Source: an uncultured Candidatus Saccharibacteria bacterium (GTDB lineage: Bacteria; Patescibacteriota; Saccharimonadia; Saccharimonadales; JAGQNJ01). Taken from it: a DNA stretch of 64,000 nt. The DNA lies in contig CAZPAW010000002.1 in assembly GCA_964584895.1 (NCBI GenBank), positions 194,748 to 258,747 of the forward strand, given 5' to 3'. Positions 32,555-50,712 of the stretch are shown here, piece after piece. The notes beneath the pieces are model-generated. The model saw only the letters and a list, made by a program, of their open reading frames with translations, made no database searches and was not told the DNA's origin. Every line of letters begins with the position of its first letter. Position 1 is the first letter of the stretch. The position numbers and the translations under genes are program-made.

Positions 32555-33838
32555 CTAACCATAGAACTCAAGTTCGCCATCCTTTATTTGAAGCATAGGA
32601 CCCATATTTGATGCTAAGAATGTTCTCTCACTATCCGTACCATCAGCAAGTACGTATCGAGCATACTCAATGAATGGATTATCTAGTTTTTGATCGATTT
32701 TGTAGTGAGTAAGTATCGTTTTAGTTGTATAGAAGTGTTTGTCGACCCTTGCTCTAAGTTTTTCCGTTATTTTTATGTCCTCGTGTTGTTTCTCAATAAA
32801 ACCCTGCATCAATTCACAAAGTCTTTCTTCATTCACATATTTCTCGGCACAGCTTGGGTCTTTACGCCTTGTGCAGTTGTAGTAGACGAATCTTTTTACG
32901 TCACCATTTTTTAGCGTCTTGAATTTGTCTTGTGCTGTGATATCTGCAGTACACCGTCCACACTTCAATAGTCCTCGGAAGGCGAATGTCTTTGATCCCC
33001 ACACACCCTTATTAACGCCTCTTGTTTCTTGCACGAGATCGAACAATTCTTTAGATATGAGTGGTTTATGAGCACCTGTATACCATGGTGCATCAGGAGC
33101 TTCGGGATATTGAAATTTACCGTAGTAAAAGGACGTGCTGAGAATCACCAGTATTTGGCTCACACTAATTGGTTTGCCAGAACGGTTAGTGAAGCCTTGC
33201 TCATCAAGCCATGCTTTTATCCTGCGACCACTCCAACGTTCATACCCAGCTTTTTGAAAGGCTTCGATAATTAGTTCTGATCTATCAGGATCAAGGATAA
33301 TGTCGTTAACACCTGCAAATGCTCGATTCATGTATCCAAGTGGCGCAACGCCTGGTCGCCAGCCCATCTCGCATTTATTTCTGATACCTCGTTTGACGTT
33401 GATACTTTTGTTATCGTTCTCAAGTTTGGCTTGCGAACACAAAATCATGAGCAAGAACTTTTCGTTCGGATTATTCGTGAATGTCTGCGAGTAAGTACGG
33501 ATATGTAGCAGCTTACCCTGATCCATTAGGTCGACAACTGACCCTAGATCACCAGCATTTCTACTTAGTCGATCTGGTGCCCACGTAAGTACTGCATTGT
33601 ATTCTTCGTTCGCCAAGCCTTTTAGAAGCTTGTTATATACGGGTCGTTTGCCTGAGTCTTTGGCTGAGTGACTCTCTTGAAGTTCACAAACAATATGTAA
33701 TCCTTCATTTTCAGCCAATGCTCGCATCTCGTTAAGTTGCGAATCAATCGACATTGCCTGACGCTCATCACTCTCGGAAGATTTGCGAGCATACAGGCAA
33801 TATTTTAGTGTCGATTGATTGTCCAGCATGGCAAGCAC
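32555..33838 (-). CDS. large serine recombinase (paralogue of 15133..16431)
   Basis: 427 aa. Long runs identical to the element A enzyme (NAVLTWAPDRLSRNAGDLG, NNPNEKFLLMILCSQAKLENDNKSINVKRGIR). Probable start MLDNQ at 33829. Confidence 0.9.
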   Translation of the reverse strand: MLAMLDNQSTLKYCLYARKSSESDERQAMSIDSQLNEMRALAENEGLHIVCELQESHSAKDSGKRPVYNKLLKGLANEEYNAVLTWAPDRLSRNAGDLGSVVDLMDQGKLLHIRTYSQTFTNNPNEKFLLMILCSQAKLENDNKSINVKRGIRNKCEMGWRPGVAPLGYMNRAFAGVNDIILDPDRSELIIEAFQKAGYERWSGRRIKAWLDEQGFTNRSGKPISVSQILVILSTSFYYGKFQYPEAPDAPWYTGAHKPLISKELFDLVQETRGVNKGVWGSKTFAFRGLLKCGRCTADITAQDKFKTLKNGDVKRFVYYNCTRRKDPSCAEKYVNEERLCELMQGFIEKQHEDIKITEKLRARVDKHFYTTKTILTHYKIDQKLDNPFIEYARYVLADGTDSERTFLASNMGPMLQIKDGELEFYG

Positions 33839-35988: not shown

Positions 35989-37446
35989 TCATAACCACCG
36001 AATACTCGGCTCTCTATGAGCGGATAATTCAACCAACTTAGTTATCACTATTGTTATAGCGTCTACTAGGTCATCATGCTTTTCTTTACCGAACCCTGTA
36101 AGTTGCATAATCAGCTCATTGCAACCAGTTTTGGGGAACAATATTCTTTCTTCTTCAAACATGTAACTAATCAAAGTTAGCCGCCCTCGTTTGTCGAGTG
36201 ATCCTACGGGCACACCCTCTGCATCGATACCCTCGGACTGTAATTGTTGGACAGCTGAATACTGATAGCCGACATTCTCTATGAAAATCTTTAGATGTAA
36301 GCCCTTACTTCGCATCTTTGCGTACGCATGACGCGAAGTTTCCATAGTAACCATGTGCGACTGCCGTGCGTTAACAGGGTTTGGGTGTATATAGATTTTC
36401 ATATCATTGCCACGACCATGAACCTCAGCTGTGACCATAGCAGTACAATCGGCAGATCTTCGCTCAGATATTGCAAGGTCAACACCCATAGCAACTCTTA
36501 GTGGCTTGGTGCTTGGTAACTCATCATAGTAATGAATCATTGCTGGGGTAATTACTTGTCCGTGTTCAGGCACAATCCTGAGCATGAATTCACGTTCAAA
36601 CGCCAGCTCATCGCCAATACTCCGTTTTACCTTGGCTATGTCTTTGTCGGTGGGATATTTCCCGACCCATAATGATTTGCCGTTACGAACCAGCGGGTAT
36701 GATTTGAACATGCCATCAATTTCACCTCGTTCTATGCGTTCTTTGAGCCTCATAAGTAGCGAATCACTATGAAGCAAGTTACCTATGACAATTTTCTGTG
36801 TGTACAAATCTCCTCCAGGCAAAACTTCGCTTGCAAGCCAGTTGAAAACTTTATTACGCCCCTCAATTGTTTTTACAGAATCAAGATCCTCGACATCGTC
36901 CACGATCAGTAAATCTGGTCGGCGTGAACCGTGTCGAAGACCTCTAATACTTTGCTCAGTTGAAGCTGCAATTACTTGTACATTAAACTCTGGAACAAAT
37001 AATGCTGATCGCCCCCATGTGTCACTATTTTCTTCAAGAGCACCAAAGTCAGCCCGAAGTAACTCATTACCCTCAATTTCACGCTTCAAACTAGCAAGGT
37101 GAGCTTTTGCCTGTGGTTGGGTACGACTAATGATGAGAATGAATCGCTTTTCAGGTACACCAATAATTGCCCACAGTGGGTAAAAGGTGGTTACGATAGA
37201 AGACTTACCTGAACCTCGAAAGGCAACAAACGCTAACAAACCTTGCTGGTTATCCTGTAACATTTGGTACATTTCCTTTTGAAAGTCAGCCGTGGGATGC
37301 GTAATGTATTGGCTAAAGTAGATGTGGGCAAACCAGTAGAAGCTTTGTCTGGCGAGCATAAGCCGCGTCGCCCGATCTAAACGAATATGCCTCCAAAGCT
37401 CAGCACTAACATCATCTGGGCTATCAGGAATCTTTAGCGATCTCAT
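35989..37446 (-). CDS. terL: phage terminase large subunit-like protein (paralogue of 18428..19882)
   Basis: 485 aa. AFRGSGKSS, DLLIVDDVED, MGVDLAISE and KHDDLVDAIT. Confidence 0.85.
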   Translation of the reverse strand: MRSLKIPDSPDDVSAELWRHIRLDRATRLMLARQSFYWFAHIYFSQYITHPTADFQKEMYQMLQDNQQGLLAFVAFRGSGKSSIVTTFYPLWAIIGVPEKRFILIISRTQPQAKAHLASLKREIEGNELLRADFGALEENSDTWGRSALFVPEFNVQVIAASTEQSIRGLRHGSRRPDLLIVDDVEDLDSVKTIEGRNKVFNWLASEVLPGGDLYTQKIVIGNLLHSDSLLMRLKERIERGEIDGMFKSYPLVRNGKSLWVGKYPTDKDIAKVKRSIGDELAFEREFMLRIVPEHGQVITPAMIHYYDELPSTKPLRVAMGVDLAISERRSADCTAMVTAEVHGRGNDMKIYIHPNPVNARQSHMVTMETSRHAYAKMRSKGLHLKIFIENVGYQYSAVQQLQSEGIDAEGVPVGSLDKRGRLTLISYMFEEERILFPKTGCNELIMQLTGFGKEKHDDLVDAITIVITKLVELSAHREPSIRWL

Positions 37447-37843
37447 CCTGAGCCTCGTTCGAAATTAGCCCCGCAAAATTAAGTGACTTTTGTACAAGCA
37501 ACATTTGCTCAGGCGTTAATTCCTGTTGTACGGCTTGAATACGAGCATCGATCTCTAGCTTGTTGCGGTATTTGCCGTGGTGGTGCTTCAGCCAAAAAGT
37601 AATTGCGGTTATGTTCTGATTTTTAATAGCATTGATCAATTGAGACTCAGCAAGGTCGTTAATCCGCCCGATACTTAGTTCGATTGTTTCATCGCACAAT
37701 TCAGCAAATGCTTCATCATCTTTACGCCACCTATAGTATGTGGACCGAGGCAAGCCCATTTGTTTGCAAGCTGCCTCCACAATTGGGGTCTTTGCAAGCC
37801 GTGCCAAAAGTAGTTTTTTATCCGCATCTTGGTTTCTACTCAT
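37424..37843 (-). CDS. HTH protein, small-terminase-like (paralogue of 19869..20315)
   Basis: 139 aa. ACKQMGLPRSTYYRWRK. Same overlap pattern with its neighbouring genes. Confidence 0.55.
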   Translation of the reverse strand: MSRNQDADKKLLLARLAKTPIVEAACKQMGLPRSTYYRWRKDDEAFAELCDETIELSIGRINDLAESQLINAIKNQNITAITFWLKHHHGKYRNKLEIDARIQAVQQELTPEQMLLVQKSLNFAGLISNEAQDEIAKDS

Positions 37844-39159
37844 AGTTTGACTCGCTTCAGACCTGTTAGGTTTTCCCAGCGCTTCATAGCTACCTCAGCA
37901 TAGGTTGGTGACTTTTCCATGATGTAACACCTGCGCTTTAACTTTGTGCTGGCTATAAGTGTTGAGCCACTGCCACAGAAGGGCTCGACTACAAGGTCAC
38001 CTCGCTTTGTGAGCACCTTTATGTACGGGATAAGAATTTCTATTGGCTTGGTTCCAAAAATAACGCCTTGGCCAGAACTTTTTTCATCACTAGCTATGTA
38101 GTCGATAAAGTCTGTAGGCTGGTATTTCTTACCACCCTCATAACCCTCCCAATGTGGTTTGCCGGATATTGCATATAGAGCTGTTTCGAATTCTTCTTGC
38201 AAGCCATCAGGCTCCTCACCATGGTTATATTCAACAACTCCGCTAGCACCGACCATGGCAATATCGTGCTTACTAAAGAATTTGTACTTGGAAGCAAAGC
38301 CTTGATGACGGTTAGACAGATGCCAAACAATCATGTTTTTAATCTTCCAGTGCTCAGCCATTGCTTCCCATATAACAGGGATGTTCTTCCAGTTTTCGTA
38401 GCAGATAATGCTGAAGTTGGGGTTGGCATGCTTTGCGACATTAGCCATCCATAGCTCCGAGAAGTTGTCTGGCAGCACATCAGTTTCAAGGTACCTGCGG
38501 TTGCGTTTTGCACCAAATCCTGTAACTGGTTTACCGCCACGTTTGGCGTGTAAGTAATCCAATATGTATGGTGGGTCGGTCATGCACATGTTTGCTTGCT
38601 CGCCATTCATGAGCTTATCGAAATCAGCCTCAATGGTTGAATCTCCACACATGAGTCGTGAATCGCCCAGCTGGTATACATCGCCTTTTTGTACTTCGAC
38701 ACTTTTGATATCTAGTTTTGCTAGTTCTTTTTCCAAATCAAACGTTTCGGGTTCATCAACGGATAGATCAAATATTTCATCAAGCTCCTCGCTCTCAAAG
38801 CCAATATCTGCCAGCAGGGACTCATCAAATTCAGCTAACATCTCATAGTCCCAGTCGCCCAAGTTTTTATTTAATCGAATGTTTAATTCTTTTTCTTTTG
38901 CTTCATCAGCGATATCTATATAGACAACGGGTACTTCTTTTATGCCAAGGTCTTTAGCAACTTTTAAGCGAAAATGGCCACCGATTACAATGTTATGCCT
39001 ATTCTCATTGCTGTTAACCAGCACTGGGTCTACTAGTCCAAAACGTTTTATACTCTCAGTGAGCTGTTCCGCTGCAGACTCGCTCCATTTACGTGGATTG
39101 TAGGTGGCTGGCTTTAGCTCAGATACCTTTATTTGCTGTATTTTTAAGTTATTATTCAC
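37840..39159 (-). CDS. ParB-like nuclease domain / DNA methyltransferase fusion (paralogue of 20276..21598)
   Basis: 439 aa with a GTG start and AAGGAG Shine-Dalgarno. GGHFRLKVAK, TDPPY and EPFCGSGSTLIA. Confidence 0.85.
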   Translation of the reverse strand: MNNNLKIQQIKVSELKPATYNPRKWSESAAEQLTESIKRFGLVDPVLVNSNENRHNIVIGGHFRLKVAKDLGIKEVPVVYIDIADEAKEKELNIRLNKNLGDWDYEMLAEFDESLLADIGFESEELDEIFDLSVDEPETFDLEKELAKLDIKSVEVQKGDVYQLGDSRLMCGDSTIEADFDKLMNGEQANMCMTDPPYILDYLHAKRGGKPVTGFGAKRNRRYLETDVLPDNFSELWMANVAKHANPNFSIICYENWKNIPVIWEAMAEHWKIKNMIVWHLSNRHQGFASKYKFFSKHDIAMVGASGVVEYNHGEEPDGLQEEFETALYAISGKPHWEGYEGGKKYQPTDFIDYIASDEKSSGQGVIFGTKPIEILIPYIKVLTKRGDLVVEPFCGSGSTLIASTKLKRRCYIMEKSPTYAEVAMKRWENLTGLKRVKL

Positions 39160-39319: not shown

Positions 39320-39346
39320 AAAAACAATTGACTTTCAATTGTTTTT
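39320..39346. promoter_or_regulatory. 12 bp-arm inverted repeat over the -35 of the Type I R-M promoter
   Basis: AAAAACAATTGA-ctt-TCAATTGTTTTT. TTGACT (39328-39333), 17 nt spacer, TATTCT (39351-39356), 6 nt, then ATG at 39363. Confidence 0.45.
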
Positions 39347-39362
39347 CAAGTATTCTCGGGGT

Positions 39363-39938
39363 ATGAGTAAGACTTTACGACTAGGCGAAATAGCGACAAT
39401 CCAATCAGGATATAGTTTTCGCGCTAAAGTCGTAAGTGTAGATGGCGGTAGCCTAGGTGTGGTTCAAGCAAAAGATATTAACGGTCTTTATGTTGCTGAA
39501 GATAGTATCGCTAAAATAAATCAGCCGTATGCCGAGAGTCGCATACTAAGAACTGGAGATGTCCTACTTACCTCGCGCGGATCATTTCGTGCTGGTGTTA
39601 GTAAGTTTATTAAGCCGACCATTGCTTCATCGTCGTTGTTTACAATACGACTTACCTCAGGAGATGTATTGCCAGAGTATCTTGCAATATACCTTAACTC
39701 TGACCAAGCCCAGTATTATTTTTCACTAAACGCTAAAGGCGCAACAATTCAGAGCCTTGCCATACCTGATTTACAGAACCTAAATGTACCTATAGTACCG
39801 CTATCGTCACAGAGAATAATCATTGATCTGCAACAGAATGTTGAATCGCAAAGAAATATATTGAGTCGTAAACAAGACATTATTAACCAATTACTGAAAA
39901 GTAGTGTAGCCAAGACACTAGAAGGAGCAACAAAATGA
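39363..39938 (+). CDS. hsdS: Type I R-M specificity subunit, single-TRD (half-size) form
   Basis: 191 aa from MSKTLRLGEIATIQSGYSF. One target-recognition domain plus one conserved helical region. The stop overlaps the hsdM ATG. Confidence 0.7.
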   Translation: MSKTLRLGEIATIQSGYSFRAKVVSVDGGSLGVVQAKDINGLYVAEDSIAKINQPYAESRILRTGDVLLTSRGSFRAGVSKFIKPTIASSSLFTIRLTSGDVLPEYLAIYLNSDQAQYYFSLNAKGATIQSLAIPDLQNLNVPIVPLSSQRIIIDLQQNVESQRNILSRKQDIINQLLKSSVAKTLEGATK

Positions 39939-41446
39939 CAGTAAAAAAATACACCCAGGAGCAACTTAACGATATTCTTTGGGCAGCCGCCGATTCGAGC
40001 CGAGTTGGTGTAGACGGCGGAGTATATAAAGACTACGCACTAACAATGTTGTTTGTGAAGTATCTAAGTGACCTATCCAAAAAACAACACGCAAAATATG
40101 TTGAACGTTTTGGCAATGATGAAGAGCGAATTGCTGCAAAAATGAAGCAGGATCGCTTCTACCTCCCACCTAATACCAACTTCGATTACATTTACTCGAA
40201 GAAAGAAGAAGACAATATTGGTGAAGAAATTAACAAGGTCATGCACCGAATCGAAGATACTAACAAATCTAAGCTCGAAGGTGTATTTAGTGTAGATTTT
40301 AACTCTGAAGCTATTTTAGGTAAGCAGGCGCAACGTAATAAGATGCTTCGTCACCTAATTGATGATTTTTACAAAATTGATCTTAGCGAGGCAGATGAAG
40401 ATATTATTGGTAACTCCTACATGTACCTGATAGAGCGCTTCGGTGCAGATGCAGGTAAAAAGGCTGGTGAATTCTTTACCGTAAAATCTGTCGCCAAGTT
40501 AGTAGCTATGCTGGCACAGCCTAAGCCTGGCGATCGAATCGCTGACCCAGCCATGGGAAGTGGTGGTTTGCTATTACTTGCGGGTGAAGAAGTCGAAAAG
40601 CAAGGGTCTAATAACTATGCATTGTACGGCCAAGAGTCAACCGGAAGTACCTTCCAACTTGCTCGAATGAACATGTTCTTACACGGAAAAGATTCGGCAT
40701 ATCTTGAATGGGGCGATACGCTTAACAACCCGCAACTTGTTGAGAACGATAAGCTAATGAAGTTTGATGTTTGCGTAGCCAATCCTCCGTTCTCTCTTAA
40801 AAAATGGGGTGCTGAGAATGCTGACAGCGACAAATACAATCGCTTTTGGCGCGGTGTACCACCAAAGGACAAAGGCGACTATGCGTTTATTACACATATG
40901 ATTGAAACAGCAAAGCCGAAAAGTGGCCGAGTGTCGGTTATTGTGCCTCACGGCGTACTGTTTCGCAGTGGCGCAGAAGGTAAGATTCGTGAAGCTCTCC
41001 TCAAAGAAAATATAGTAGATGCAGTAATTGGCCTGCCTGCTGGCTTATTCCAAACTACTGGCATACCTGTAGCAATTCTTATATTAGACCGTTCTCGTGA
41101 AGAAGGTGGTAAGAACGCCAATAAGAAAGACGTACTATTTATTGAGGCATCAAAAGAGTTTAAGCCCGGAAAGGCTCAAAACAGCCTGACAGAGGAAAAT
41201 ATCGGCAAAATCTACAATGCATATGTTGAACGTAAAGATGTAGATAAATTTGCGCACGTTGCCGGCTTCGATGAGATCAAGGAAAACGACTTCAATCTAA
41301 ACATCACGCGTTATGTTGATACTTTTGAGGAAGAGGCTGAAATCGATATTGCAGCCAACTTGGACGAGCTGGAAAAGCTTAATCCTGAGCTAGATAGGCT
41401 TGAAGCACAGATGAATGACTACCTTAAGCAGTTGGGGATTAAATAG
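39935..41446 (+). CDS. hsdM: Type I R-M DNA methyltransferase subunit
   Basis: 503 aa. DPAMGSGGLL AdoMet loop, catalytic NPPF in VANPPFSLKKW. GAAGGAG Shine-Dalgarno upstream. Confidence 0.95.
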   Translation: MTVKKYTQEQLNDILWAAADSSRVGVDGGVYKDYALTMLFVKYLSDLSKKQHAKYVERFGNDEERIAAKMKQDRFYLPPNTNFDYIYSKKEEDNIGEEINKVMHRIEDTNKSKLEGVFSVDFNSEAILGKQAQRNKMLRHLIDDFYKIDLSEADEDIIGNSYMYLIERFGADAGKKAGEFFTVKSVAKLVAMLAQPKPGDRIADPAMGSGGLLLLAGEEVEKQGSNNYALYGQESTGSTFQLARMNMFLHGKDSAYLEWGDTLNNPQLVENDKLMKFDVCVANPPFSLKKWGAENADSDKYNRFWRGVPPKDKGDYAFITHMIETAKPKSGRVSVIVPHGVLFRSGAEGKIREALLKENIVDAVIGLPAGLFQTTGIPVAILILDRSREEGGKNANKKDVLFIEASKEFKPGKAQNSLTEENIGKIYNAYVERKDVDKFAHVAGFDEIKENDFNLNITRYVDTFEEEAEIDIAANLDELEKLNPELDRLEAQMNDYLKQLGIK

Positions 41447-41447
41447 T

Positions 41448-42416
41448 ATGCGTTTAGGGAAAGTTCGAAATACAGTTACCGAAGTTACAAACTCCTCTGG
41501 CCAAATGGTGATTGAGGCAGATGCTGTTTATGGGGGCCAAGCATACACAGTTAAAAAATTCGATAAGCTATCAGCTGCTCTGACAGTTGTTTCAGATCAA
41601 AAATGGAATGACTTAGATTTCTCACCAGTTAAGACAGTTCTCGATGCGTACGATAAATCTGCGACACAAACAATAACCAATACTGAATATGACCAAATTA
41701 ACTCCTACATAGCATCTGTAAACCAAAAGTTGCCGATTTTTATTGGCCTAATTCAAACTATGGTTGAAGACCAAGACGAACAAACTATAAACGTCAAACT
41801 TCCAGCGAAAGCGACTAGTCTAAAAGACCTTAATGCCTTAAACACTAAACTCGATAAACTCTTCACGAAATTCAATATAGACGGTAAGCCAATAGATTTT
41901 AAGGGCTTTGATACAGGAACCGACTGGTATGTATTCGCAGTTGGCGGCGTTATAACGTATCGATTTATTATTGGTTGTATAAAGATTGCCCATGATTACT
42001 TCGATATGCGAAAAAAGTACTTTGACTCAAAGCGTTCAAAATTGGACTACGAAGCGTCTTTAAAGGCTAGCGAGAAATTTGATGACAAGGCATTTAAAGA
42101 ATTCCAACAGCGACGGCTAGATCTAGAAGTCGCTACAAGTATTGATGAGCTCGTTAAGCACATAAATGAAAAAAACGGTCATGAAGTCGCAGAGCTTAAT
42201 AACAAATTGATTATCGCAACAAAAGATTTAATTGAAGTTTTAGATGAAGGCGCAGAGTTTCATCTTTCACTTAATCCACCTAAGTATGTCGAAGAAGATT
42301 CTAGTGGCTTACTAACAATAAATTATTCACAGATGCCAAAACTAGAGACAAAAAAAGAAGTTAAAACTATAGAGTCTGGTAAAACTAAAGCGACCGAGGA
42401 CGTAGTTAATGAGTAG
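41448..42416 (+). CDS. single-pass membrane / coiled-coil protein of unknown function embedded in the R-M operon
   Basis: 322 aa from MRLGKV (an alternative ATG at 41415 lies inside hsdM). One central hydrophobic helix WYVFAVGGVITYRFIIGCIKIA, then a charged helical C-terminal half. The stop overlaps the hsdS ATG. Confidence 0.55.
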   Translation: MRLGKVRNTVTEVTNSSGQMVIEADAVYGGQAYTVKKFDKLSAALTVVSDQKWNDLDFSPVKTVLDAYDKSATQTITNTEYDQINSYIASVNQKLPIFIGLIQTMVEDQDEQTINVKLPAKATSLKDLNALNTKLDKLFTKFNIDGKPIDFKGFDTGTDWYVFAVGGVITYRFIIGCIKIAHDYFDMRKKYFDSKRSKLDYEASLKASEKFDDKAFKEFQQRRLDLEVATSIDELVKHINEKNGHEVAELNNKLIIATKDLIEVLDEGAEFHLSLNPPKYVEEDSSGLLTINYSQMPKLETKKEVKTIESGKTKATEDVVNE

Positions 42417-43608
42417 TACAGGATTTCCGTCTGGGTGGGATGAATTAACTATAAAAAAGGCGACCATACTACTGAAGGATGGTTCACATGGGACTCACAA
42501 AGACGTTGATGGGGGTATTCCTTTGCTAAGCGCAAAAGACATTCGACATGGTCGTGTCTGGTTTGAAAATGATCCAAGGCACATCTCTAGCGATGACTTT
42601 AATCAAATTCATAAGAACTACAAATTATGTAATGGTGACGTATTACTAACAATTGTCGGTACGCTTGGTCGTATAGCTAGGGTTCAAAATTACAGTAATA
42701 GCTATACTCTACAAAGAAGCGTCGCTGTTTTAAGATTCGATAATAGTTTAGTTGACAGCGAGTACGCATATTACTTACTAACAGCACCTAGGTTTCAGGC
42801 GGACTTAAAGAGACGAGAAAATAGAGGGGCTCAGGGCGGAGTTTATCTAGGTGAAATAGCAAAGATTAAAGTATTGATTCCGGGCCTTCCAATGCAGAGA
42901 AATATAGTTCAAATTCTAAATACGTGGGATAAGTGTCTTGCAAATTTGGACAAGAAAATTGCTGCCAAAAAGCATATAAAGAAAGGGCTGATGCAGCGAT
43001 TGCTGTCTGGCAAGGTGCGGCTACCAGGCTTTAACGAAAGATGGACGCCAAGAACATTAGGTGCTGTTAGTAATATAAAAACTGGCAAGAAGGACAACAA
43101 AGACAAAGTAGAGTCTGGTGAATACCCTTTCTTTGTGCGCTCTCCAAATATTGAAAGAATAAATTCCTATTCATTTGATGGTGAAGCGATACTCATACCA
43201 GGCGAAGGTAATATAGGAAAAATATTTCATTACATAAATGGTAAGTTTGATTTTCATCAAAGAGTCTACAAAATAAGTAATTTTGATAAAGACACAAATG
43301 GTAAATTTATTTACTATCTGCTGTCTAAAGACTTCGCAAATCACACAAAGCGTCATTCAGTAAAAGCTACTGTTGATTCATTAAGATTACCAACTTTTAA
43401 AATGTTCGAGTATCTAGCGCCTAACCGAAAAGAACAAGATGCCATTGCCGATGTTCTTAGTGCGGCAGATGAAGAGATTGAACTGCTTTCGAAGGAACGT
43501 GGATACATTGCTGAGCAAAGGAAGTTTTTGCTCAACGGTTTAATTAACGGTAAGATTCGCGTCCCAGAGTCTGTACGAGAAAAACAATTGGAGGTTGCTA
43601 ATGCTTGA
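42409..43608 (+). CDS. hsdS: Type I R-M specificity subunit, two TRDs
   Basis: 399 aa. Two TRDs separated by conserved helices (LLSGKVRLPGF ... LINGKIRVPE). Confidence 0.9.
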   Translation: MSSTGFPSGWDELTIKKATILLKDGSHGTHKDVDGGIPLLSAKDIRHGRVWFENDPRHISSDDFNQIHKNYKLCNGDVLLTIVGTLGRIARVQNYSNSYTLQRSVAVLRFDNSLVDSEYAYYLLTAPRFQADLKRRENRGAQGGVYLGEIAKIKVLIPGLPMQRNIVQILNTWDKCLANLDKKIAAKKHIKKGLMQRLLSGKVRLPGFNERWTPRTLGAVSNIKTGKKDNKDKVESGEYPFFVRSPNIERINSYSFDGEAILIPGEGNIGKIFHYINGKFDFHQRVYKISNFDKDTNGKFIYYLLSKDFANHTKRHSVKATVDSLRLPTFKMFEYLAPNRKEQDAIADVLSAADEEIELLSKERGYIAEQRKFLLNGLINGKIRVPESVREKQLEVANA

Positions 43609-46600
43609 AAACATAAACTTTGACGAAGCTCGTCAGTCACAACTTCCTTTTGTAGAAATGCTTATTAATATGGGCTATAAGTATCTACCGACCGCTGAGC
43701 TGATGCGCCAGCGTAGTGACGACACATCATACTATCTGTTAAAAGAAATTGCTGCAGATTCTTTAATGCGGATAAACGACTACGAACATCATGGTCAAAC
43801 TTTGAAGTTCACCGAAAAAGACGTAGCCGAAGCCATTGACGAGCTAGAAAATCTCCAGTACGAAGGTCTGATTGATACATCTAAAACTGTATATAACACC
43901 ATTATGCCGTTGAAGGGCGGTAAAACTATACGTGTATTTCATGATGGCAAATACGAATCTAAAAGCTTCCGATTTATCGACTTTGAACATCCAGAAAACA
44001 ATGTATTCCATGTAGCGGTAGAAGTTGAAGTCAGTGCTAAGAACGGTACTCGCCGTCCAGATATAGTCTGTTACATTAACGGCATCCCGTTTGTAGTTAT
44101 AGAAAATAAGAAGTCGAGTGTTGATGTTAGCGATGCTATCAACCAAATGATCCGCAACCAAGGCCCCGATTACAGCCCTCGGTTCTTTATTTACCCTCAA
44201 CTGCTAATTGCGAGTAACGGTAAAGATGTGCGCTACGGAACTACTGGTACACCAGCCGAGTTCTATGTAAATTGGCGAGAAAAAGACCACACAGCTGAAG
44301 AAATTGATGAAAAAGTACGCGAATTTATCTCTACTAAAATTGATGACGAGCTGTACGCACAGCTACTAACTGATTTAAATGGCTTCACGCATAACCACAC
44401 CCAGCGCCTTGAGCGCAAACCTACCGAACAAGATCGTTCCATCGTTGCCCTACTAGATAAAAAGCGACTGTTAGATATTACCAAGAACTATATTCTTTAT
44501 GACGGTGCTGAGAAGAAGGTTATGCGTTATCAGCAGTACTTTGCAATCCACCATGCGCTAAAGCGAATCGAAGAGAAAGAACCAACCAGTCACGGCGAAC
44601 GTCGCAAGGGCGGTATCATTTGGCATACTCAAGGCTCCGGCAAGTCATTGACGATGGTAATGTTTGTGCGAGCTTTAATTGAAGACCCTCGAATCATTAA
44701 CCCACGTATATTAATTGTTACTGATCGAAAAGATTTAGACCGACAGATTCTTGGCACCTTCCAAAACGCTGGACTCAAAAAGAAGGTCAAGCAAGCGCGC
44801 AGCGGCGAACACCTGCTGGAGCTCATAAAGTCCAAAGACACTAGCGTTGTTACGACGCTAATTCATAAGTTCCAATCGGCTTCGAGGCGACGTGCAGATT
44901 TTGTAGATAATGATCAAAACATATTTGTACTAATCGACGAAGCCCATCGCTCACAACAAGGTGAAGCAAATATTGAAATGAATCGCACTATTTCGAGTGC
45001 TTGCTACATAGCCTTTACGGGCACACCGCTACTTAAACGCGAGCAGTCACAAAACAAGTTTGGTAGTTTTATAGACAAATACACAATTGATGATGCGTTG
45101 GACGACAATATTGTTTTGCCCCTAATCTACGAGGGTCGCTACGTTGACTTGCACCAGGACAAGAACGAAATAGACCGACTGGTTGAACGCTTAACTGCCG
45201 ACCTAAGCGACGAGCAGAAAAAGCAACTACAGAAGAATATCGAAAACAAACTCATAAAAGATAATCCAAAACGTATTGCTGAAATCGCTTACGACATAGA
45301 AAGACACTACTCCGGTCGATTCCAGGGTTACGGCCTTAAGGCACAAATCGTTGCCCCATCGAAGTTTTCAGCCATGTTGTTCCAAAAGTACTTCAAAGAT
45401 AGCGGCAAGCTAAATACCGCCCTCGTCATATCCGACGAGAACGGCATCATCGATGATAAAGACGAGCACAAAAAAGAAGTTGAAGGTTACTTAAAAGAAA
45501 TTAAGGACAAGTACCAGAGTCTGCTAAGCTACGAAAAAGAAGTCATTGATAGCTTCAAGTACAACGACGAAGGCGTAGAAATTATTATTGTGGTCGACAA
45601 GCTTCTCACTGGTTTCGACGCGCCTCGCAATACAGTCCTGTACCTTGCTAAGGAGCTAAAAGATCATAACTTACTGCAGGCAATCGCCCGCGTCAATCGT
45701 TTGTATGATAACCCAGCCCTACCAAAAACAGCTGGATTCATTATTGACTACTCAGAAAATGCACAGAACATTCACACTGCTATGCAATTGTTTGGCAACT
45801 ACGACGAGAATGATGTCAAGGGCGCGCTGATTGATGTTAATGAAAAGATTCAAGATCTTGAAGCCAGCTACGGCGCATTGCATGACATATTCAACGGCAT
45901 TGCGAGCGATGACGAAGCCTACCTACAGCACCTGGGCGACGATCCAACTCGTAAAGAATTCTATGCCGCACTAAATAAGTTCATGCAGGAATTTAGTGAG
46001 TGTATGGTCTTACAGGACTTTGCACACGAATTCGAGGATCTTGATACCTACCGCCGCGAACTAAAGAAATTCATGGAGCTACGCAAAACGGCCACATTAA
46101 TGAATGAAGAACGTGTCGATTTTTCTAAGTACAAGAACGCACTAGTAAAAATCATGGACGAAAACATCAAGGCCGATGAAGCTGAGTTGTTAACCGAAGA
46201 GATCAATATTACCGACAAGGAATTGTTTGATAAAGCCATCGAAGAAATCGGTTCGGATAAATCCAAGGCCGAAGCAATCGCTGCTCAAACCAAACGTACA
46301 ATAACCGAGAAGTTCGATACTGATCCAGAATTCTACGGCAAGTTTTCAAAGAAAATTAGCGAAATCCTGGAAGCCATGCGAGCCAAGAAGCTAGCCGATA
46401 TCGAAGCACTCAAGCAACTTAAGCTAATAACCGATGAAGTTTTGCATAAAAAAGACGATTCACTGCCGTCAGTTATCGCTGAAACACCGGGTGTTGATAT
46501 CTTGTACCGCAACCTGCGCGGTGATCTTGATTTGGAAGAAGTTACATATATCAAAACCGTACTTGATATATACCAGGTACTAAGCAAAAATGCTCGAGTA

Positions 46601-46774
46601 GATTGGTGGAAGAATCACGAAATGAAGCGAATTATGCGAACCAGTATCGACGATTACCTATACGACGAAGTGAAAGTTAAGCTGGGCGTTGATCTTACCG
46701 CCGATCAAATTGACTCAATTGTAGACGACGTCATGAAGCTGGCAGAAAATAACTACGAGATATTCGTTAAATGA
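43601..46774 (+). CDS. hsdR: Type I R-M restriction/helicase subunit
   Basis: PD-(D/E)xK region RPDIVCYINGIPFVVIENKK, then SF2 motifs TQGSGKSLT, LIDEAHRSQ and QAIARVNR. The ATG at 43601 has a GGAGG Shine-Dalgarno 6 nt upstream (track start 43595 is TTG). Confidence 0.95.
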   Translation: MLENINFDEARQSQLPFVEMLINMGYKYLPTAELMRQRSDDTSYYLLKEIAADSLMRINDYEHHGQTLKFTEKDVAEAIDELENLQYEGLIDTSKTVYNTIMPLKGGKTIRVFHDGKYESKSFRFIDFEHPENNVFHVAVEVEVSAKNGTRRPDIVCYINGIPFVVIENKKSSVDVSDAINQMIRNQGPDYSPRFFIYPQLLIASNGKDVRYGTTGTPAEFYVNWREKDHTAEEIDEKVREFISTKIDDELYAQLLTDLNGFTHNHTQRLERKPTEQDRSIVALLDKKRLLDITKNYILYDGAEKKVMRYQQYFAIHHALKRIEEKEPTSHGERRKGGIIWHTQGSGKSLTMVMFVRALIEDPRIINPRILIVTDRKDLDRQILGTFQNAGLKKKVKQARSGEHLLELIKSKDTSVVTTLIHKFQSASRRRADFVDNDQNIFVLIDEAHRSQQGEANIEMNRTISSACYIAFTGTPLLKREQSQNKFGSFIDKYTIDDALDDNIVLPLIYEGRYVDLHQDKNEIDRLVERLTADLSDEQKKQLQKNIENKLIKDNPKRIAEIAYDIERHYSGRFQGYGLKAQIVAPSKFSAMLFQKYFKDSGKLNTALVISDENGIIDDKDEHKKEVEGYLKEIKDKYQSLLSYEKEVIDSFKYNDEGVEIIIVVDKLLTGFDAPRNTVLYLAKELKDHNLLQAIARVNRLYDNPALPKTAGFIIDYSENAQNIHTAMQLFGNYDENDVKGALIDVNEKIQDLEASYGALHDIFNGIASDDEAYLQHLGDDPTRKEFYAALNKFMQEFSECMVLQDFAHEFEDLDTYRRELKKFMELRKTATLMNEERVDFSKYKNALVKIMDENIKADEAELLTEEINITDKELFDKAIEEIGSDKSKAEAIAAQTKRTITEKFDTDPEFYGKFSKKISEILEAMRAKKLADIEALKQLKLITDEVLHKKDDSLPSVIAETPGVDILYRNLRGDLDLEEVTYIKTVLDIYQVLSKNARVDWWKNHEMKRIMRTSIDDYLYDEVKVKLGVDLTADQIDSIVDDVMKLAENNYEIFVK

Positions 46775-47472
46775 TGACACGGACTTTTGAATATGGCACA
46801 CATCGCTACATTTACGGGTTGATACGTCAGGACAGAAAAACGCTAAGTCTCACAGTTGAGCCTTGTCTAGATATTATCTTGAAAGTTCCGGAAGATGCCG
46901 ACGACGAACGAATCGAAAAGTTCCTACGTAAAAAATGGATGTGGCTCAACAAGCAAATAACCTTTTTCGAAAAATACCGTCGGAAGTATTACCAAAAAGA
47001 GTACGTTTCTGGTGAGAGTTTTTACTATCTTGGTCGTCAGTACAAACTAGTCGTAGTTAATGGCAATAAAAACTCAGTTGCTCTCAGTAAAGGTAAACTT
47101 ACTATTACGACCACTAAGAAAACGACGGATGGTAAATCTAATCGAGCTTTGCTCGAACGATGGTACAAAAACCGCAGGCACGTTGTTTTCGCGGAACGCT
47201 ACGCAGAAGTACTAAAGAACTTTGATTACAAATTCACTCCCGAACTGACTGTACGCGTAATGGCAAGGCGTTGGGGCAGCTACATCAAGGGTGAGCGGAT
47301 TATTTTGAATCCACTGCTGATCCAAGCTACCAAAGAAGCAATAGACTATGTTATTACCCACGAACTATGCCATATGAAGTACAAGAACCATGATGCTAAT
47401 TTCTATATGTTACTTGAAACCAAGTTTCCCAATTGGAGCAAAACAAAGGAAAAACTGGAGTTACTCATATGA
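46771..47472 (+). CDS. YgjP/DUF45 (M48-like) zinc metallohydrolase
   Basis: 233 aa. HExxH in ITHELCHMKYKNH. ATGA overlap with hsdR. This family commonly follows hsdR. Confidence 0.8.
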   Translation: MMTRTFEYGTHRYIYGLIRQDRKTLSLTVEPCLDIILKVPEDADDERIEKFLRKKWMWLNKQITFFEKYRRKYYQKEYVSGESFYYLGRQYKLVVVNGNKNSVALSKGKLTITTTKKTTDGKSNRALLERWYKNRRHVVFAERYAEVLKNFDYKFTPELTVRVMARRWGSYIKGERIILNPLLIQATKEAIDYVITHELCHMKYKNHDANFYMLLETKFPNWSKTKEKLELLI

Positions 47473-48821
47473 TAATTTCTAAATCTGAATACATGATGTT
47501 TTTGAAGCAACCAGCATGGCTGTGGCTAAAAAAGAACGATCCAAAAAAGTTGCCTCCAGTTGATGAAAACACACAGGCATTATTCGACGCTGGTCATCAA
47601 TTTGAACCTTATGCTGAATCATTATTCCCTGAAGGCGCAACACTTGGTTTCTCTGACTATAGTGAATACCTATCGTTGCCTGAGCGAACGCAGGATGCAA
47701 TCAAAAACGGTCATCAAGTATTATTCCAACCAAGATTTGAATGGCAGGACTTTACCTGTATTTGTGACATTGTCAGTTTTGTCGATGATAATGAAGTTGA
47801 TCTTTATGAAATCAAGGCAAGCACTACTGCCAAGGTCGAACATGAATTTGATCTCGCATTCCAGACTGCTGTACTTGAAGGTACTGGCTTGAAGGTGCGG
47901 AGCATTTTCGTAATCCACGTAAATAATCAGTATGTGAGACGTGGTGCGATCGAAGCAGAAAAAATAACGCACGTAGAGGACATTACCGAAAAAGTTCGTA
48001 AAAGAAGTGAAGCAACTGCGAAATATATGCCTATAGCAGTAGCTACAGCCCAAAAAAAGAATATGCCCGATCCGTCACCTAATCTTGCCAAACTTGGCTC
48101 AAAGAAAGATTGGCTAAAAGTTTACGAAGCAATTATTCCGCAGACACCAAAACAATACCCAGCCGATATTGCACCTACGATCCAGCGAGATGAGATAAAA
48201 AACTTCTTGAACAATCTGAAGTACCCATTGTATTTCTTAGATTACGAAACGCTGATGAGCCTCGTACCATATTTCGATGGTCATCGTCCGTATCAACAAG
48301 TGCCATTCCAATATTCACTTCACATTCTTAAGTCGCCAGATGCTGATCTCGAATGGCGTGAGTATCTACACAAAGACAATTCCGACCCGGCTCGCCCATT
48401 GACAGAACAACTGATAAAAGATATTGGCGATTCTGGAGCGGTACTCGTATGGTATGAAGGATTTGAAAAAGCCCGTAATAGTGAGCTTGGTGACATGTTA
48501 CCTGAATATAAAAAAGCGATGGAAGCCATAAATAACAGAATTATAGATCTTATGCTTCCGTTCAAGAATAAATGGTATGATGATCCGCGATTTGAAGGCA
48601 GCGCAAGCATTAAACAAGTACTTCCCGTGCTTTGTCCTGAGCTGTCCTACAAAGACCTTGGGATACAGGAAGGTGGCTCTGCGCAAAGGCTATGGATGGA
48701 AGCCGTGCTGGACAACAAACGAGCTGATCAAAAAGATCAGATTCTTGCCGACCTAATCGAATACTGCAAACTCGATACTCTCGCTATGGTTGAAATATTT
48801 AGAAGGTTGCGAGACCTATGA
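47469..48821 (+). CDS. DUF2779-like protein (PD-(D/E)xK plus DEDD-like exonuclease halves)
   Basis: The MIISKSEYMMFLKQPAWLW N-terminus, CDIV...DLYEIKAS (D..ExK), and later YFLDYET and YCKLDTLAMVEI acidic motifs. ATGA overlap with the DUF45 gene. Confidence 0.6.
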   Translation: MIISKSEYMMFLKQPAWLWLKKNDPKKLPPVDENTQALFDAGHQFEPYAESLFPEGATLGFSDYSEYLSLPERTQDAIKNGHQVLFQPRFEWQDFTCICDIVSFVDDNEVDLYEIKASTTAKVEHEFDLAFQTAVLEGTGLKVRSIFVIHVNNQYVRRGAIEAEKITHVEDITEKVRKRSEATAKYMPIAVATAQKKNMPDPSPNLAKLGSKKDWLKVYEAIIPQTPKQYPADIAPTIQRDEIKNFLNNLKYPLYFLDYETLMSLVPYFDGHRPYQQVPFQYSLHILKSPDADLEWREYLHKDNSDPARPLTEQLIKDIGDSGAVLVWYEGFEKARNSELGDMLPEYKKAMEAINNRIIDLMLPFKNKWYDDPRFEGSASIKQVLPVLCPELSYKDLGIQEGGSAQRLWMEAVLDNKRADQKDQILADLIEYCKLDTLAMVEIFRRLRDL

Positions 48822-49243
48822 CGAATATCTACTTAGACATTGACGGAGTGTTATTGGCAAACGACCTAAACCCAGCTAACCACGCACCCGAATTTCTGAA
48901 ATACGTTTTAGAAAAGTTTCCTGATTCAACATATTGGTTAACATCTCATTGTCAGGGAGATGCTAATGTTCCGATACAGCATATAGGGCATTTGTTCAAC
49001 ACCGAGACAGTCGAGCTAATGAAAAAGATAAAGCCAACCAGTTGGGATCTAGCAAAAACTCATGCAATTGATTTCTCTCGACCATTTCTATGGTTTGATG
49101 ATGATTTATTCTTCGAAGAAAAGCAGTCGCTAATTGAACACAATTCATTAGATAATTGGATAGAAGTAGATTTATCTAAGAACCCCGATCAGCTACTAAA
49201 TTTTATTAACAGCTTTCCTATACCTGCAGGGATGGAAAATTAA
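48818..49243 (+). CDS. small HAD-like hydrolase-fold protein
   Basis: 141 aa. N-terminal YLDIDGVLL (DxDx motif of the HAD superfamily). Weak assignment. Confidence 0.4.
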   Translation: MTNIYLDIDGVLLANDLNPANHAPEFLKYVLEKFPDSTYWLTSHCQGDANVPIQHIGHLFNTETVELMKKIKPTSWDLAKTHAIDFSRPFLWFDDDLFFEEKQSLIEHNSLDNWIEVDLSKNPDQLLNFINSFPIPAGMEN

Positions 49244-49257
49244 AGGAGCAACGACAT

Positions 49258-50712
49258 ATGGACGAAGAGCAATTTCGTAAACTATTCGAAGAAGGCCTAA
49301 TAACCGATAGACCTCCCGAAATGTGGATGCCGATGAATACCAAAGATCGCAAATGGCAGAACTATTACACGGGTCGTGGTGGTGTCACTATGCACTTAGG
49401 CGGTGGCTGGATGATGAATGTCGACACCAACGAATTAGCACAAATAGCCAGTAGCTCAGATGTTGATGAGCAACTTATTAAATCAGTACAGGCAGTATTT
49501 GATGATCTCGGATATGAATATGAAACAGTAAGCGATAAGTTTGGACATGCAATAATTGTGCGTCATCAATTTAGTGTTTTGGGAAGCAAAGCACCATTAA
49601 CTCTAAAATTTAGTGAGTATGGTTTTGACCCTAAGAAAACAATGAATGATGAATTTGAGAATGAACTACATTCCGTCACACCAGATCACATAAAGGTTAG
49701 TGTTAATAATGTACCTGAGTATGACGATGAAGGCGAAGAACTAGGTACCTTCGGAGAAACGGGCTTAGAGTTCACTACTGAAATAGACCAGCCAATAGCG
49801 GCTGATTCTTTTCCGAGTTTTGTTGAAGCAAGGCGTAAAGAAATCGATAAGATACTCAATAAACTGGGTAACTATAGATTTAGCGATGAACCACACAAAG
49901 TTGATCAAGTGTTTTATGATCTGCAAGATGCGCTTGATTCTAAAGAATATAAAAACGCCAAAGGTTCGTTATTGTTCCCAGTAGGAAAGGACGAGTCTGG
50001 AAAGTTTGTTATAGCTGACCTGCATAAATTGCCGCATATTTTGGCCGGTGGGCAAACAGGATCGGGTAAATCAAACTTTACAGAAGGAACACTGATCCTG
50101 AGTCTTTTACATCGCTATTCGTCTGATGAACTTAAGCTTCTGCTGGTCGATCCTAAGATGGTACAGTTCACGCAGTATAATGGCATCCCTCATTTGATCA
50201 AACCAGTTATTACAACTCCAGATGATTCAAAAAATGCTATGGATTGGCTACTGAACGAGACGGAAGATCGGTTCGATACTCTTGCAGACAGTAAATCTAA
50301 GAATATAGAACAATATAACTCATCAGGCAAAGGTCATATGCCATTTGTAGTACTAATCATCGATGAAGTTGCAGACTTGATGATGGTTGACGGTAAGTAC
50401 TATGAGAAATCGTTTATAAAACTGCTACAAAAATCTGCAGCGGTCGGTATTCATATCTACATAGGTACGAGTAGACCAAGTGTGGATGTCCTGCCTGACC
50501 TACTTAGAGCAAACTTCGTTACTAAAATAGCTTTTAAGACGGCTTCTAAAGTTGATAGCGAAGCATTGATTGATGTAGCTGGTGCAGAAAACCTACAAGG
50601 CAGAGGTGACTTACTATTCAGCTCGCTTGATAGCTCTCTCCCAATCCATCTGCAAGCCCCATATGTTTCGGATGAATATATGGCTAAGTACGTGGAGGAC
50701 TTGAAGGCATAG
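49258..50712 (+). CDS. FtsK/SpoIIIE-family DNA translocase ATPase, no membrane domain
   Basis: 484 aa. Walker A GGQTGSGKSN, LLLVDPKMV, Walker B VLIIDEVADLMM. AAAGGAG Shine-Dalgarno upstream. Confidence 0.8.
   Translation: MDEEQFRKLFEEGLITDRPPEMWMPMNTKDRKWQNYYTGRGGVTMHLGGGWMMNVDTNELAQIASSSDVDEQLIKSVQAVFDDLGYEYETVSDKFGHAIIVRHQFSVLGSKAPLTLKFSEYGFDPKKTMNDEFENELHSVTPDHIKVSVNNVPEYDDEGEELGTFGETGLEFTTEIDQPIAADSFPSFVEARRKEIDKILNKLGNYRFSDEPHKVDQVFYDLQDALDSKEYKNAKGSLLFPVGKDESGKFVIADLHKLPHILAGGQTGSGKSNFTEGTLILSLLHRYSSDELKLLLVDPKMVQFTQYNGIPHLIKPVITTPDDSKNAMDWLLNETEDRFDTLADSKSKNIEQYNSSGKGHMPFVVLIIDEVADLMMVDGKYYEKSFIKLLQKSAAVGIHIYIGTSRPSVDVLPDLLRANFVTKIAFKTASKVDSEALIDVAGAENLQGRGDLLFSSLDSSLPIHLQAPYVSDEYMAKYVEDLKA

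Follow-up and report, generated by a model that had tools for sequence, protein, structure and literature searches.

Why does a Type I restriction-modification (R-M) operon carry, wedged between its methyltransferase and specificity genes, a gene that matches no annotated family? The gene, here called X, encodes 322 amino acids (aa) and occupies positions 41448..42416 (+; ATG at 41448, TAG ending at 42416) of a window of 64,000 nucleotides (nt), the whole stretch of DNA that was analysed, from an uncultured Candidatus Saccharibacteria bacterium (assembly GCA_964584895.1, contig CAZPAW010000002.1). We propose X, a probable fast-diverging cargo gene of defence islands, as a candidate phage-defence gene of a previously unannotated family, of the kind recognised by "guilt-by-embedding", and consider the chances about even that it has a role in defence. 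Taken together, its presence in several R-M lineages, beside other R-M enzymes and in prophage regions, its fast divergence and the purifying selection acting on it fit the guilt-by-embedding class.

Profile searches of the window identified the genes around X. The operon opens with a half-size hsdS (39363..39938, +; Pfam Methylase_S in one stretch, E 7.5e-13), followed by hsdM, encoding the Type I N6-adenine DNA methyltransferase (39935..41446, +; Pfam HsdM_N and N6_Mtase, E 3.5e-98; PADLOC MTase_I, E 1.7e-119), X, a full-size hsdS (42409..43608, +; Pfam Methylase_S in two stretches, E 1.1e-31; PADLOC Specificity_I, E 2.4e-67) and, directly after it, an intact hsdR encoding the 1059-aa Type I restriction endonuclease/translocase (43595..46774, +; Pfam HSDR_N, SWI2_SNF2, ResIII and T1R_D3-like; PADLOC REase_I, E 1.1e-147). 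HsdM, HsdS and HsdR domains are thus encoded by adjacent, co-oriented genes. The order half-size hsdS, hsdM, X, hsdS, hsdR and DUF45 gene given in an initial annotation made from the sequence alone is therefore correct, with the identities backed by both Pfam and PADLOC, and its claim of tight junctions holds as well, X being co-oriented and closely coupled within the operon. The half-size hsdS and hsdM overlap by 4 nt, the hsdM stop (ending at 41446) is separated from the X start by a single nucleotide (TAG T ATG), the X stop lies over the hsdS start in an 8-nt overlap, and the hsdS and hsdR genes also overlap. A promoter and terminator scan, informative solely for the absence of a plus-strand terminator before hsdR, found no terminator-like site on that strand from the half-size hsdS to hsdR; it placed a promoter-like site at 39328-39356, just 5' of the half-size hsdS, site counts being at chance level. 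From this layout, X and the Type I enzyme genes of the window are predicted to share one transcript.

We next consider whether X is a genuine gene and where it starts. ORFs (open reading frames) of the window were listed over 36-50 kb, and genes in the other loci were called by a crude longest-ORF heuristic. A 333-aa ORF beginning at the ATG at 41415 was rejected, as its 11 extra residues are not conserved. All aligned homologues (38/38) start at the equivalent of 41448 with M-R-[LIV]-[GWA], so that 322 aa is the right product. The copy of X in locus L049 (loci are given L numbers) is 95 % identical and sits in the same slot of a related operon. Comparison of the window with L049 gives a proportion of synonymous differences (pS) of 0.53 and synonymous (dS) and nonsynonymous (dN) divergences of about 0.93 and 0.021; the resulting dN/dS of about 0.02 is similar to that of hsdM in the same comparison (0.017). 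Judged from these substitution patterns, X is a real gene under strong purifying selection, and it is conserved in the related operon copies of L049, L050 and L051/52, as expected had the initial annotation described a true operon member.

To see how often homologues lie in such a setting, 48 loci were retrieved through an invariant protein motif and 13 through exact protein look-up, and were compared by tblastn and by clustering of the called ORFs. Loci whose sequence continues for 500 nt or more past X, 44 in all, are informative. The gene directly after X is hsdS in 18 of them and the second gene after X is hsdS in 2, so that 20/44 are Type I-embedded, a share of about 18/39 once duplicate contigs are removed; the sampled loci are phylogenetically non-independent. 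More copies lie beside Type IIG or Type II R-M genes, and the association of X homologues with R-M loci on which the initial annotation had staked its proposal is in this sense confirmed. The recurring pattern is half-size hsdS, hsdM, zero to three genes, X, hsdS, zero to two genes, hsdR and a YgjP gene, with hsdM 63-76 % identical to that of the window. X also occurs in other Type I lineages, with hsdM identities of 39 % (L030) and 22-24 % (L018/L046), and embedded loci accordingly span at least four divergent lineages (hsdM 22-76 % identical). The three closest homologues examined all occupy the same slot as X of the window.

The position of X within these operons is narrowly defined. In every embedded locus X abuts hsdS, its stop overlapping the hsdS start or lying no more than 5 nt away from it, and other cargo sits between hsdM and X or 3' of hsdS, never between X and hsdS. 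This cargo includes RhuM, Bro-N, AlbA_2 with HATPase_c_4, NYN, HigB-like with HigA-ImmA and DUF4145 proteins, as well as Fic-like and GIY-YIG-like proteins in L009 that were recognised by eye only. Across operons HsdM is 73-76 % identical and X 36-41 %.

Individual loci illustrate how the operon can vary. A Gastranaerophilales metagenome-assembled genome (MAG) with an hsdM 63 % identical to that of the window retains, between hsdM and hsdS, a 38-residue remnant of X (L022:8702-8815; aa 265-303, motif included), which is evidence of decay or loss of X in place. The hsdR of L050 (L050:10123-13309) is split into at least three ORFs and is a probable pseudogene, with X, hsdM and both S genes intact; this locus is flanked by genes for a TIR-domain protein, a serine recombinase and an AAA_5 ATPase. 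The operon closest in architecture to that of the window (L051: 46-3528 and 13252-16047) lies on a conjugative element with a TraG/type IV secretion system coupling protein and a Replic_Relax relaxase, and is followed by HARE-HTH, UvrD-like helicase and Mrr-type nuclease genes; the L051 genes form a defence island on a mobile element.

Outside Type I operons, X adjoins or follows Type IIG/ISP-type enzymes in L001, L040 and L055/56. In L040:6239-10930 and L055/L056:3272-7933, on gut Alphaproteobacteria-type contigs, a Type IIG R-M enzyme of 1056-1067 aa, a 147-aa protein with an N-terminal transmembrane (TM) helix and X form a trio. The trio is a second link of the family to R-M, one that does not involve Type I. 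X further lies between an EcoRI-type methylase and a DUF262-HNH protein (L004) and beside a Type II methylase/HNH pair, a LexA-like protein and an OLD-family nuclease (L057), and some copies adjoin DUF2726 or a HEPN-like protein whose Rx4H motif was recognised by eye. We found no conserved partner gene for X among these loci; the small upstream ORFs vary from locus to locus (clusters c25, c28 and c9, and the 147-aa TM protein). Cluster c9 comprises proteins of 70-75 aa with a C-terminal ...DFKL and no annotated domain, encoded immediately 5' of solo X in three distinct loci (L025:393-602, L031:1623-1847, L033:9563-9787 and L035:8903-9130), in the orientation of X in one and divergently in the others; the protein may regulate X or act as its partner. 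An IS200-type transposase adjoins X in L053.

A distant Firmicute subfamily of X resides in prophage and phage genomes. One copy follows tail genes near DUF771 at a prophage end (L058:7001-7942), another lies between the replication and packaging modules (L059:7001-7984) and a third between the integrase and the end of the tail/baseplate operon (L060:1428-2366), all of which are typical "moron" positions; one locus has X of this subfamily next to an Abi_C protein. A neighbour-joining tree of X does not separate embedded from solo copies, which are intermixed. The R-M link is therefore frequent but facultative: X appears to enter and leave R-M operons and must be capable of acting alone.

How large is this family, and has it been described under another name? 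A word-indexed search returned 71 homologues of 26-95 % identity, 308-332 aa long except for three fragments, all labelled "hypothetical" and none with a Pfam domain. An exhaustive profile search, which took in 1.84 billion representatives, yielded 610 clusters (50 % identity) at E<=1e-3, 242 at <=1e-10 and 83 at <=1e-30; among the 150 clusters listed, nearly all are full-length (295-345 aa) or fragments, and none is long enough for a fusion. Even with the cutoff relaxed to E 10, X matches nothing in Pfam, NCBIfam, PHROGs or PADLOC. No family of PADLOC-DB 2.0.0, whose library includes PDC models such as PDC-S48, matches it at E<=0.01, and a profile search of the PDB gave no match below E 0.3. 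Searches with the 39 members of the main alignment (A1; 26-95 % identical, mean column identity 45 %) against Pfam, and with the 22 members of the distant-subfamily alignment (A3) against PHROGs, produced no consistent weak match. The distant, Halanaerobium-type subfamily is homologous to X over its full length (hhalign probability 99.8 %, E 5e-28).

The source records are mostly from the Candidate Phyla Radiation (CPR)/Patescibacteria (Saccharibacteria, Parcubacteria and Peribacteria), gut Alphaproteobacteria and Holosporales MAGs, with further copies in single MAGs of Bdellovibrionales, Gammaproteobacteria and Nanoarchaeota. The distant subfamily includes cultured Firmicutes, namely Halanaerobium praevalens (WP_014554174.1), Desulfosporosinus and Cytobacillus. 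The homologues P0040, P0043 and P0057, together with L057:7001-7969, carry Trp in place of a conserved Gly (FKWLDKWTSWY versus FKGFDKGTSWY), and the L057 DNA translated under table 11 does not yield its database protein. These sequences evidently come from organisms using genetic code 25 (TGA = Gly; Gracilibacteria/Absconditabacteria), to which the source database applied code 4.

As the most likely mode of action, we propose that X would be an abortive-infection- or exclusion-type module complete in one protein, which would detect infection and arrest the cell or the phage unaided. It would use the hsdM-hsdS interval mainly as an expression platform and a means of co-transfer, and would form a second line of defence behind restriction. 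The initial annotation had suggested an effector or accessory factor held in check by the R-M complex; such an obligate relation is unlikely for the family as a whole, because about half of its members lie outside any hsd operon.

Several observations weigh against a defence role of this kind. About half of the solo copies lie among housekeeping genes (DNA ligase, LpxC, rpoD-dnaG and superoxide dismutase), and searches of the IMG/VR viral contigs, of INPHARED phages and of PLSDB plasmids returned no family member. Neither the profile libraries nor the fold search revealed a recognisable enzymatic, sensor or pore-forming domain in X. Retrieval of loci by the exact motif EFHLSLNP(P) biases the sample toward one subfamily. 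Finally, the unbroken adjacency of X and hsdS hints at a closer tie to HsdS than an expression platform alone would provide.

This last point leads to a guard or decoy arrangement, in which binding by HsdS/HsdM would keep X inactive until an anti-restriction protein of the Ocr, ArdA or Stp type frees it and the cell is killed or arrested. The invariable contact of embedded X with hsdS, with overlapping start and stop and no cargo in between, speaks for it, as do the intact X beside a fragmented hsdR (L050) and the precedents of PrrC and of RonA-HsdMS (Ronin). We nevertheless consider it unlikely: roughly every second family member lacks neighbouring hsd genes, the tree does not set embedded copies apart from solo ones, the distant subfamily is prophage-borne, and X has neither sequence nor structural similarity to PrrC or RonA. 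A more specific version has a still smaller chance of being right. In it, X would be a new-fold guard effector coupled to HsdS that monitors R-M integrity in ultra-small episymbiotic bacteria (CPR/Patescibacteria and similar lineages); when a phage blocks restriction, X would unpack a buried hydrophobic strand-helix element and the cell would be arrested. Such a PrrC/Ronin-type "anti-anti-restriction" layer, provided by an unrelated protein, would explain why X is never parted from hsdS. To our knowledge, ultra-small episymbionts of this type largely lack CRISPR.

The buried element brings us to the predicted fold. Invariant positions in A1 are M1, R2, N92, Q109, N115, F151, E270-P278 and Y293, and the stretches QDE..INIKLP and FKGFDxGTxWY are near-invariant. 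The C-terminal motif E-F-H-L-S-L-N-P-P (residues 270-278; 42255..42281, +) comprises nine columns that are invariant in the 39 sequences. A3 retains MRL-, -SI[KR][LI]- and -[FVW][DE]xG[ST]xW-, with the C-terminal motif loosened to G-[AT]-E-[IV]-H-x-[AS]-L-x-[AT]-P. In the most distant members E, Y or Q stands in place of the motif His, and a universal catalytic role for E270/H272 is therefore doubtful. AlphaFold2 with A1 gave a confident model (mean predicted local distance difference test, pLDDT, 88.7; predicted template-modelling score, pTM, 0.78), in which only the K/E-rich tail 302-322 is disordered. An N-terminal α/β region is followed by β113-117, α125-142, β149-154 and β160-165, by long helices (168-192, 195-204, 213-239 and 247-266) and by three short C-terminal strands starting from EFHL; EFHLSLNPP itself is modelled as a β-strand (270-273) and a turn. 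An independent AlphaFold2 prediction of the Halanaerobium-type protein from its own alignment has the identical order of elements (pLDDT 87.7, pTM 0.73). X is thus predicted to be a compact single-chain α/β domain with a helical bundle.

Foldseek searches of the PDB and BFVD returned no match at E<=0.001 for either X model, the best being RRM/ferredoxin-like pieces of about 65 residues and weak RF1/RF2 matches. A class-I peptide release factor (YGGQA hairpin) was rejected: the Foldseek matches have E 0.04-2, a TM-score of 0.13-0.18 and a root-mean-square deviation of 15-19 Å, the GG of YGGQA is variable in A1 and the motif is missing from A3. A likeness of the H-L-S-L stretch to 2H phosphoesterases, seen by eye, was dismissed, as there is no second HxT/S motif and the His is E, Y or Q in distant members. 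A divergent HsdS (target-recognition domain and coiled-coil helices) was likewise set aside, there being no HsdS structure among the Foldseek matches.

The initial annotation described X as a single-pass membrane protein with a central hydrophobic helix and a charged helical C-terminal half. The stretch (residues 160-181, WYVFAVGGVITYRFIIGCIKIA; 41925..41990, +) and the charged helical half are both present, and the stretch coincides with the hydropathy peak; the part of the claim that is weakened is the membrane span, the hydropathy being marginal and the stretch being modelled as strand and helix of a compact fold. TM propensity was assessed by simple scales, the Kyte-Doolittle mean over 19 residues (KD19) and the sum of Hessa biological-scale values. 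Across the family the peak always lies at about residues 160-165, with a KD19 of 1.76 in the window and a family median of 1.6. On these scales X is intermediate: the Hessa-type sum is +3.0 kcal/mol for X of the window, clear TM segments of neighbouring proteins taken as controls have KD values of 1.9-3.2 and sums of -4.4 to +1.7, and the soluble HsdM, HsdR and HsdS have KD values of 1.0-1.45 and sums of +6 to +12.

A membrane effector would require this stretch to be a true or conditionally inserting TM helix through which X depolarises or permeabilises the membrane. The peak is at the same position family-wide and gives way to a basic cluster (mean K+R of 2.8 C-terminal to it versus 1.1 N-terminal to it), and in X it surpasses the peaks of all soluble Hsd neighbours in hydrophobicity. 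An uncharged run of at least 18 residues is present in 41 % of members, and in the Halanaerobium-type A3 proteins this run has a median of 22 residues, with small-xxx-small patterns. Set against this, the Hessa-type sum is above 0 in 170/170 full-length members, the longest run free of D, E, K and R in X of the window is only 12 residues, broken by R172 and then by the conserved K179, and many members have Glu at position 162. In both subfamilies AlphaFold2 places W160-V165 in a β-hairpin strand and the remainder at the start of a helix of 25-33 residues (in X, β-strand 160-165 and helix 168-192), with pLDDT above 90. The models show no structurally independent flanking domains, only one compact unit, and with so high a whole-chain pTM the two halves would not be expected on opposite sides of a membrane. 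By the positive-inside rule, the basic cluster after the segment would imply a cytoplasmic C-terminus and hence export of a 160-aa N-terminal domain without a signal peptide. We therefore regard a membrane effector as quite unlikely. X is probably soluble, or at most peripherally or conditionally membrane-active, with the hydrophobic stretch predicted to form a core strand and helix rather than a membrane anchor.

Could X instead be a selfish or mobile passenger with a role other than defence, for instance a phage-derived gene that gathers in tolerant intergenic slots? The phage and prophage genomes of the distant subfamily would agree with this, as would the mobile surroundings of X in the window (serine recombinases and a TerL/HTH/ParB-methylase trio flanking the operon), in L051 (a conjugative element) and in L053 (the IS200-type transposase). 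Prophage accessory regions are, however, themselves typical homes of defence genes. The purifying selection on X is strong and its position relative to hsdS specific, and enrichment beside several unrelated kinds of R-M enzyme is hard to explain by tolerance alone, leaving the passenger role decidedly doubtful.

In the window, the trio lies at 35989-39159 (-), divergent from the R-M operon, and encodes a TerL-like large terminase (weak Terminase_6C match), a 139-aa helix-turn-helix (HTH) protein resembling small terminases or transposases, and a ParB-N/N6/N4 DNA methyltransferase fusion; no structural phage genes were recognised near it. Paralogous large serine recombinases at 15133-16431 (-) and 32555-33838 (-) bracket part of the region, with Resolvase, Recombinase and Zn_ribbon_recom domains (Pfam was run on 32555-33838 only). 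A related serine recombinase occurs in L019, and another adjoins the R-M operon of L050. These surroundings suggest that the R-M/X operon travels on integrative elements.

Least probable is a role within the Type I enzyme itself, as an accessory subunit or a regulator that would act on HsdS, for example in assembly, in specificity switching or in restriction alleviation: translational coupling and invariable adjacency to hsdS in embedded loci, the two S genes of this operon family and the short-range conservation (X 95 %, HsdM 92 %) point to it, yet many copies are solo or phage-borne, X also stands beside single-chain Type IIG enzymes that have no HsdS, the identities across operons (HsdM 73-76 % versus X 36-41 %) are unlike those of a co-evolving core subunit, and profile searches found no DNA-binding or HTH domain in X, so that we hold it to be very unlikely. 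Accessory-subunit and non-defence passenger roles are both less likely than a defence role.

The initial annotation had called the co-occurrence of a half-size and a full-size S gene atypical; on the contrary, the arrangement is a conserved architecture found in at least 12 related loci. A half-size S gene 5' of hsdM together with a downstream full-size S gene was observed in the window and in L003, L007, L008, L010, L015, L022, L029, L050 and L051. The half-size HsdS consists of a single target-recognition domain and a conserved helix, and the PADLOC Specificity_I and mad5 models cover just one half of it. One HsdM/HsdR set may serve two specificities, through a half-S homodimer and the full-size S. 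The YgjP-like (DUF45) zinc metallopeptidase gene (46771..47472, +; Pfam YgjP-like, E 2.9e-50), which overlaps hsdR by 4 nt, is the conserved final gene of this Type I operon family and is found 3' of hsdR in 11 related loci. In the window, overlapping junctions prolong the operon past it with a DUF2779/Cas4-like nuclease gene (47433..48821, +; Pfam DUF2779, E 6.6e-41; Cas4 matches weak) and a 141-aa ORF without a family match (48818..49243, +) that overlaps the DUF2779 gene; these two genes are not conserved in the related loci. An FtsK/SpoIIIE-family ATPase gene follows the 141-aa ORF at 49258-50712.

How, then, does X compare with known systems? PrrC, which joins an ABC-type NTPase domain to a tRNA(Lys) anticodon nuclease at its C-terminus, is encoded in the EcoprrI (prr) Type I locus; cleavage of the tRNA anticodon loop upon activation by a phage anti-restriction peptide characterises the PrrC/RloC nucleases. 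The initial annotation had taken it as a model for X, and X is indeed like it in being a single extra gene nested among, and apparently co-transcribed with, hsd genes, PrrC serving as the concept model of a second-line suicide effector. The analogy stops at location. X of the window lies inside a Type I hsd operon, as PrrC does, and so does X in 20/44 loci of the family; PrrC is almost exclusively embedded (Payne et al., bioRxiv 10.1101/2024.01.29.577857), whereas X is embedded in about 45 % of loci. Neither an NTPase nor a nuclease signature is present in X, which is not similar to PrrC: there is no conserved Walker A motif (GxxxxGK[ST]) in A1, the lone GKT lying in the non-conserved disordered tail.

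Ronin of E. coli ECOR55 offers a second comparison. Its effector RonA is toxic unless suppressed by HsdMS, and uncaging by anti-restriction proteins has been proposed (bioRxiv 10.1101/2023.04.06.535777). Like RonA, X is encoded in tight linkage with hsdM and hsdS and has a hydrophobic segment. RonA, however, is a 61-aa peptide with one clear TM helix, whereas X is a 322-aa globular protein with a marginal segment; Ronin has no hsdR, whereas the X operon has an intact one, and there is no sequence similarity between RonA and X.

X also resembles uncharacterised genes nested in R-M and other defence operons. Such genes embedded in Type I R-M, BREX, DISARM and Hma operons have often proved to be new, independent defence systems, and they are found outside these operons too (Payne et al., bioRxiv 10.1101/2024.01.29.577857; TgvAB, PMC11411939). 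X shares this nesting and this dual occurrence with the HEC and PDC sets and with TgvAB of Vibrio cholerae VPI-2, and differs in matching no PADLOC-DB 2.0.0 model, PDC entries included. The guilt-by-embedding screens drew on RefSeq genomes (Payne et al., bioRxiv 10.1101/2024.01.29.577857), while the close family of X is confined to uncultured CPR/Patescibacteria, gut Alphaproteobacteria and similar MAGs. Common Type I cargo (RhuM, Bro-N, AlbA_2/Schlafen-like, NYN, DUF4145 and Fic proteins) occupies the same hsdM-hsdS and hsdS-hsdR intervals, sometimes in the same operons as X; these proteins are unrelated to X in sequence, and X alone keeps a fixed place directly 5' of hsdS.

X is therefore outside PrrC/RloC, Ronin and all PADLOC families and resembles these at most in genomic logic. 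Uncharacterised genes embedded in Type I operons are well known, with thousands of such families, and X is one more gene of this already known sort. Genes nested in restriction operons have repeatedly proved to be new immune systems, and X stands out somewhat among them. Its family is large (about 600 clusters at 50 % identity) and unannotated in all libraries tested, and its predicted fold is confident and unmatched. The family occurs chiefly in CPR/Patescibacteria and other host-associated lineages with small genomes; little is known of their defence repertoire, and screens of reference genomes miss them. With its fixed place against hsdS, X makes the coupling of an accessory protein to a Type I enzyme a concrete, testable hypothesis. 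A demonstrated defensive function of X would enlarge the catalogue of defences by a new single-gene system and a new fold; if X were shown to bind HsdS, it would be the third independent effector guarding R-M, after PrrC and RonA.

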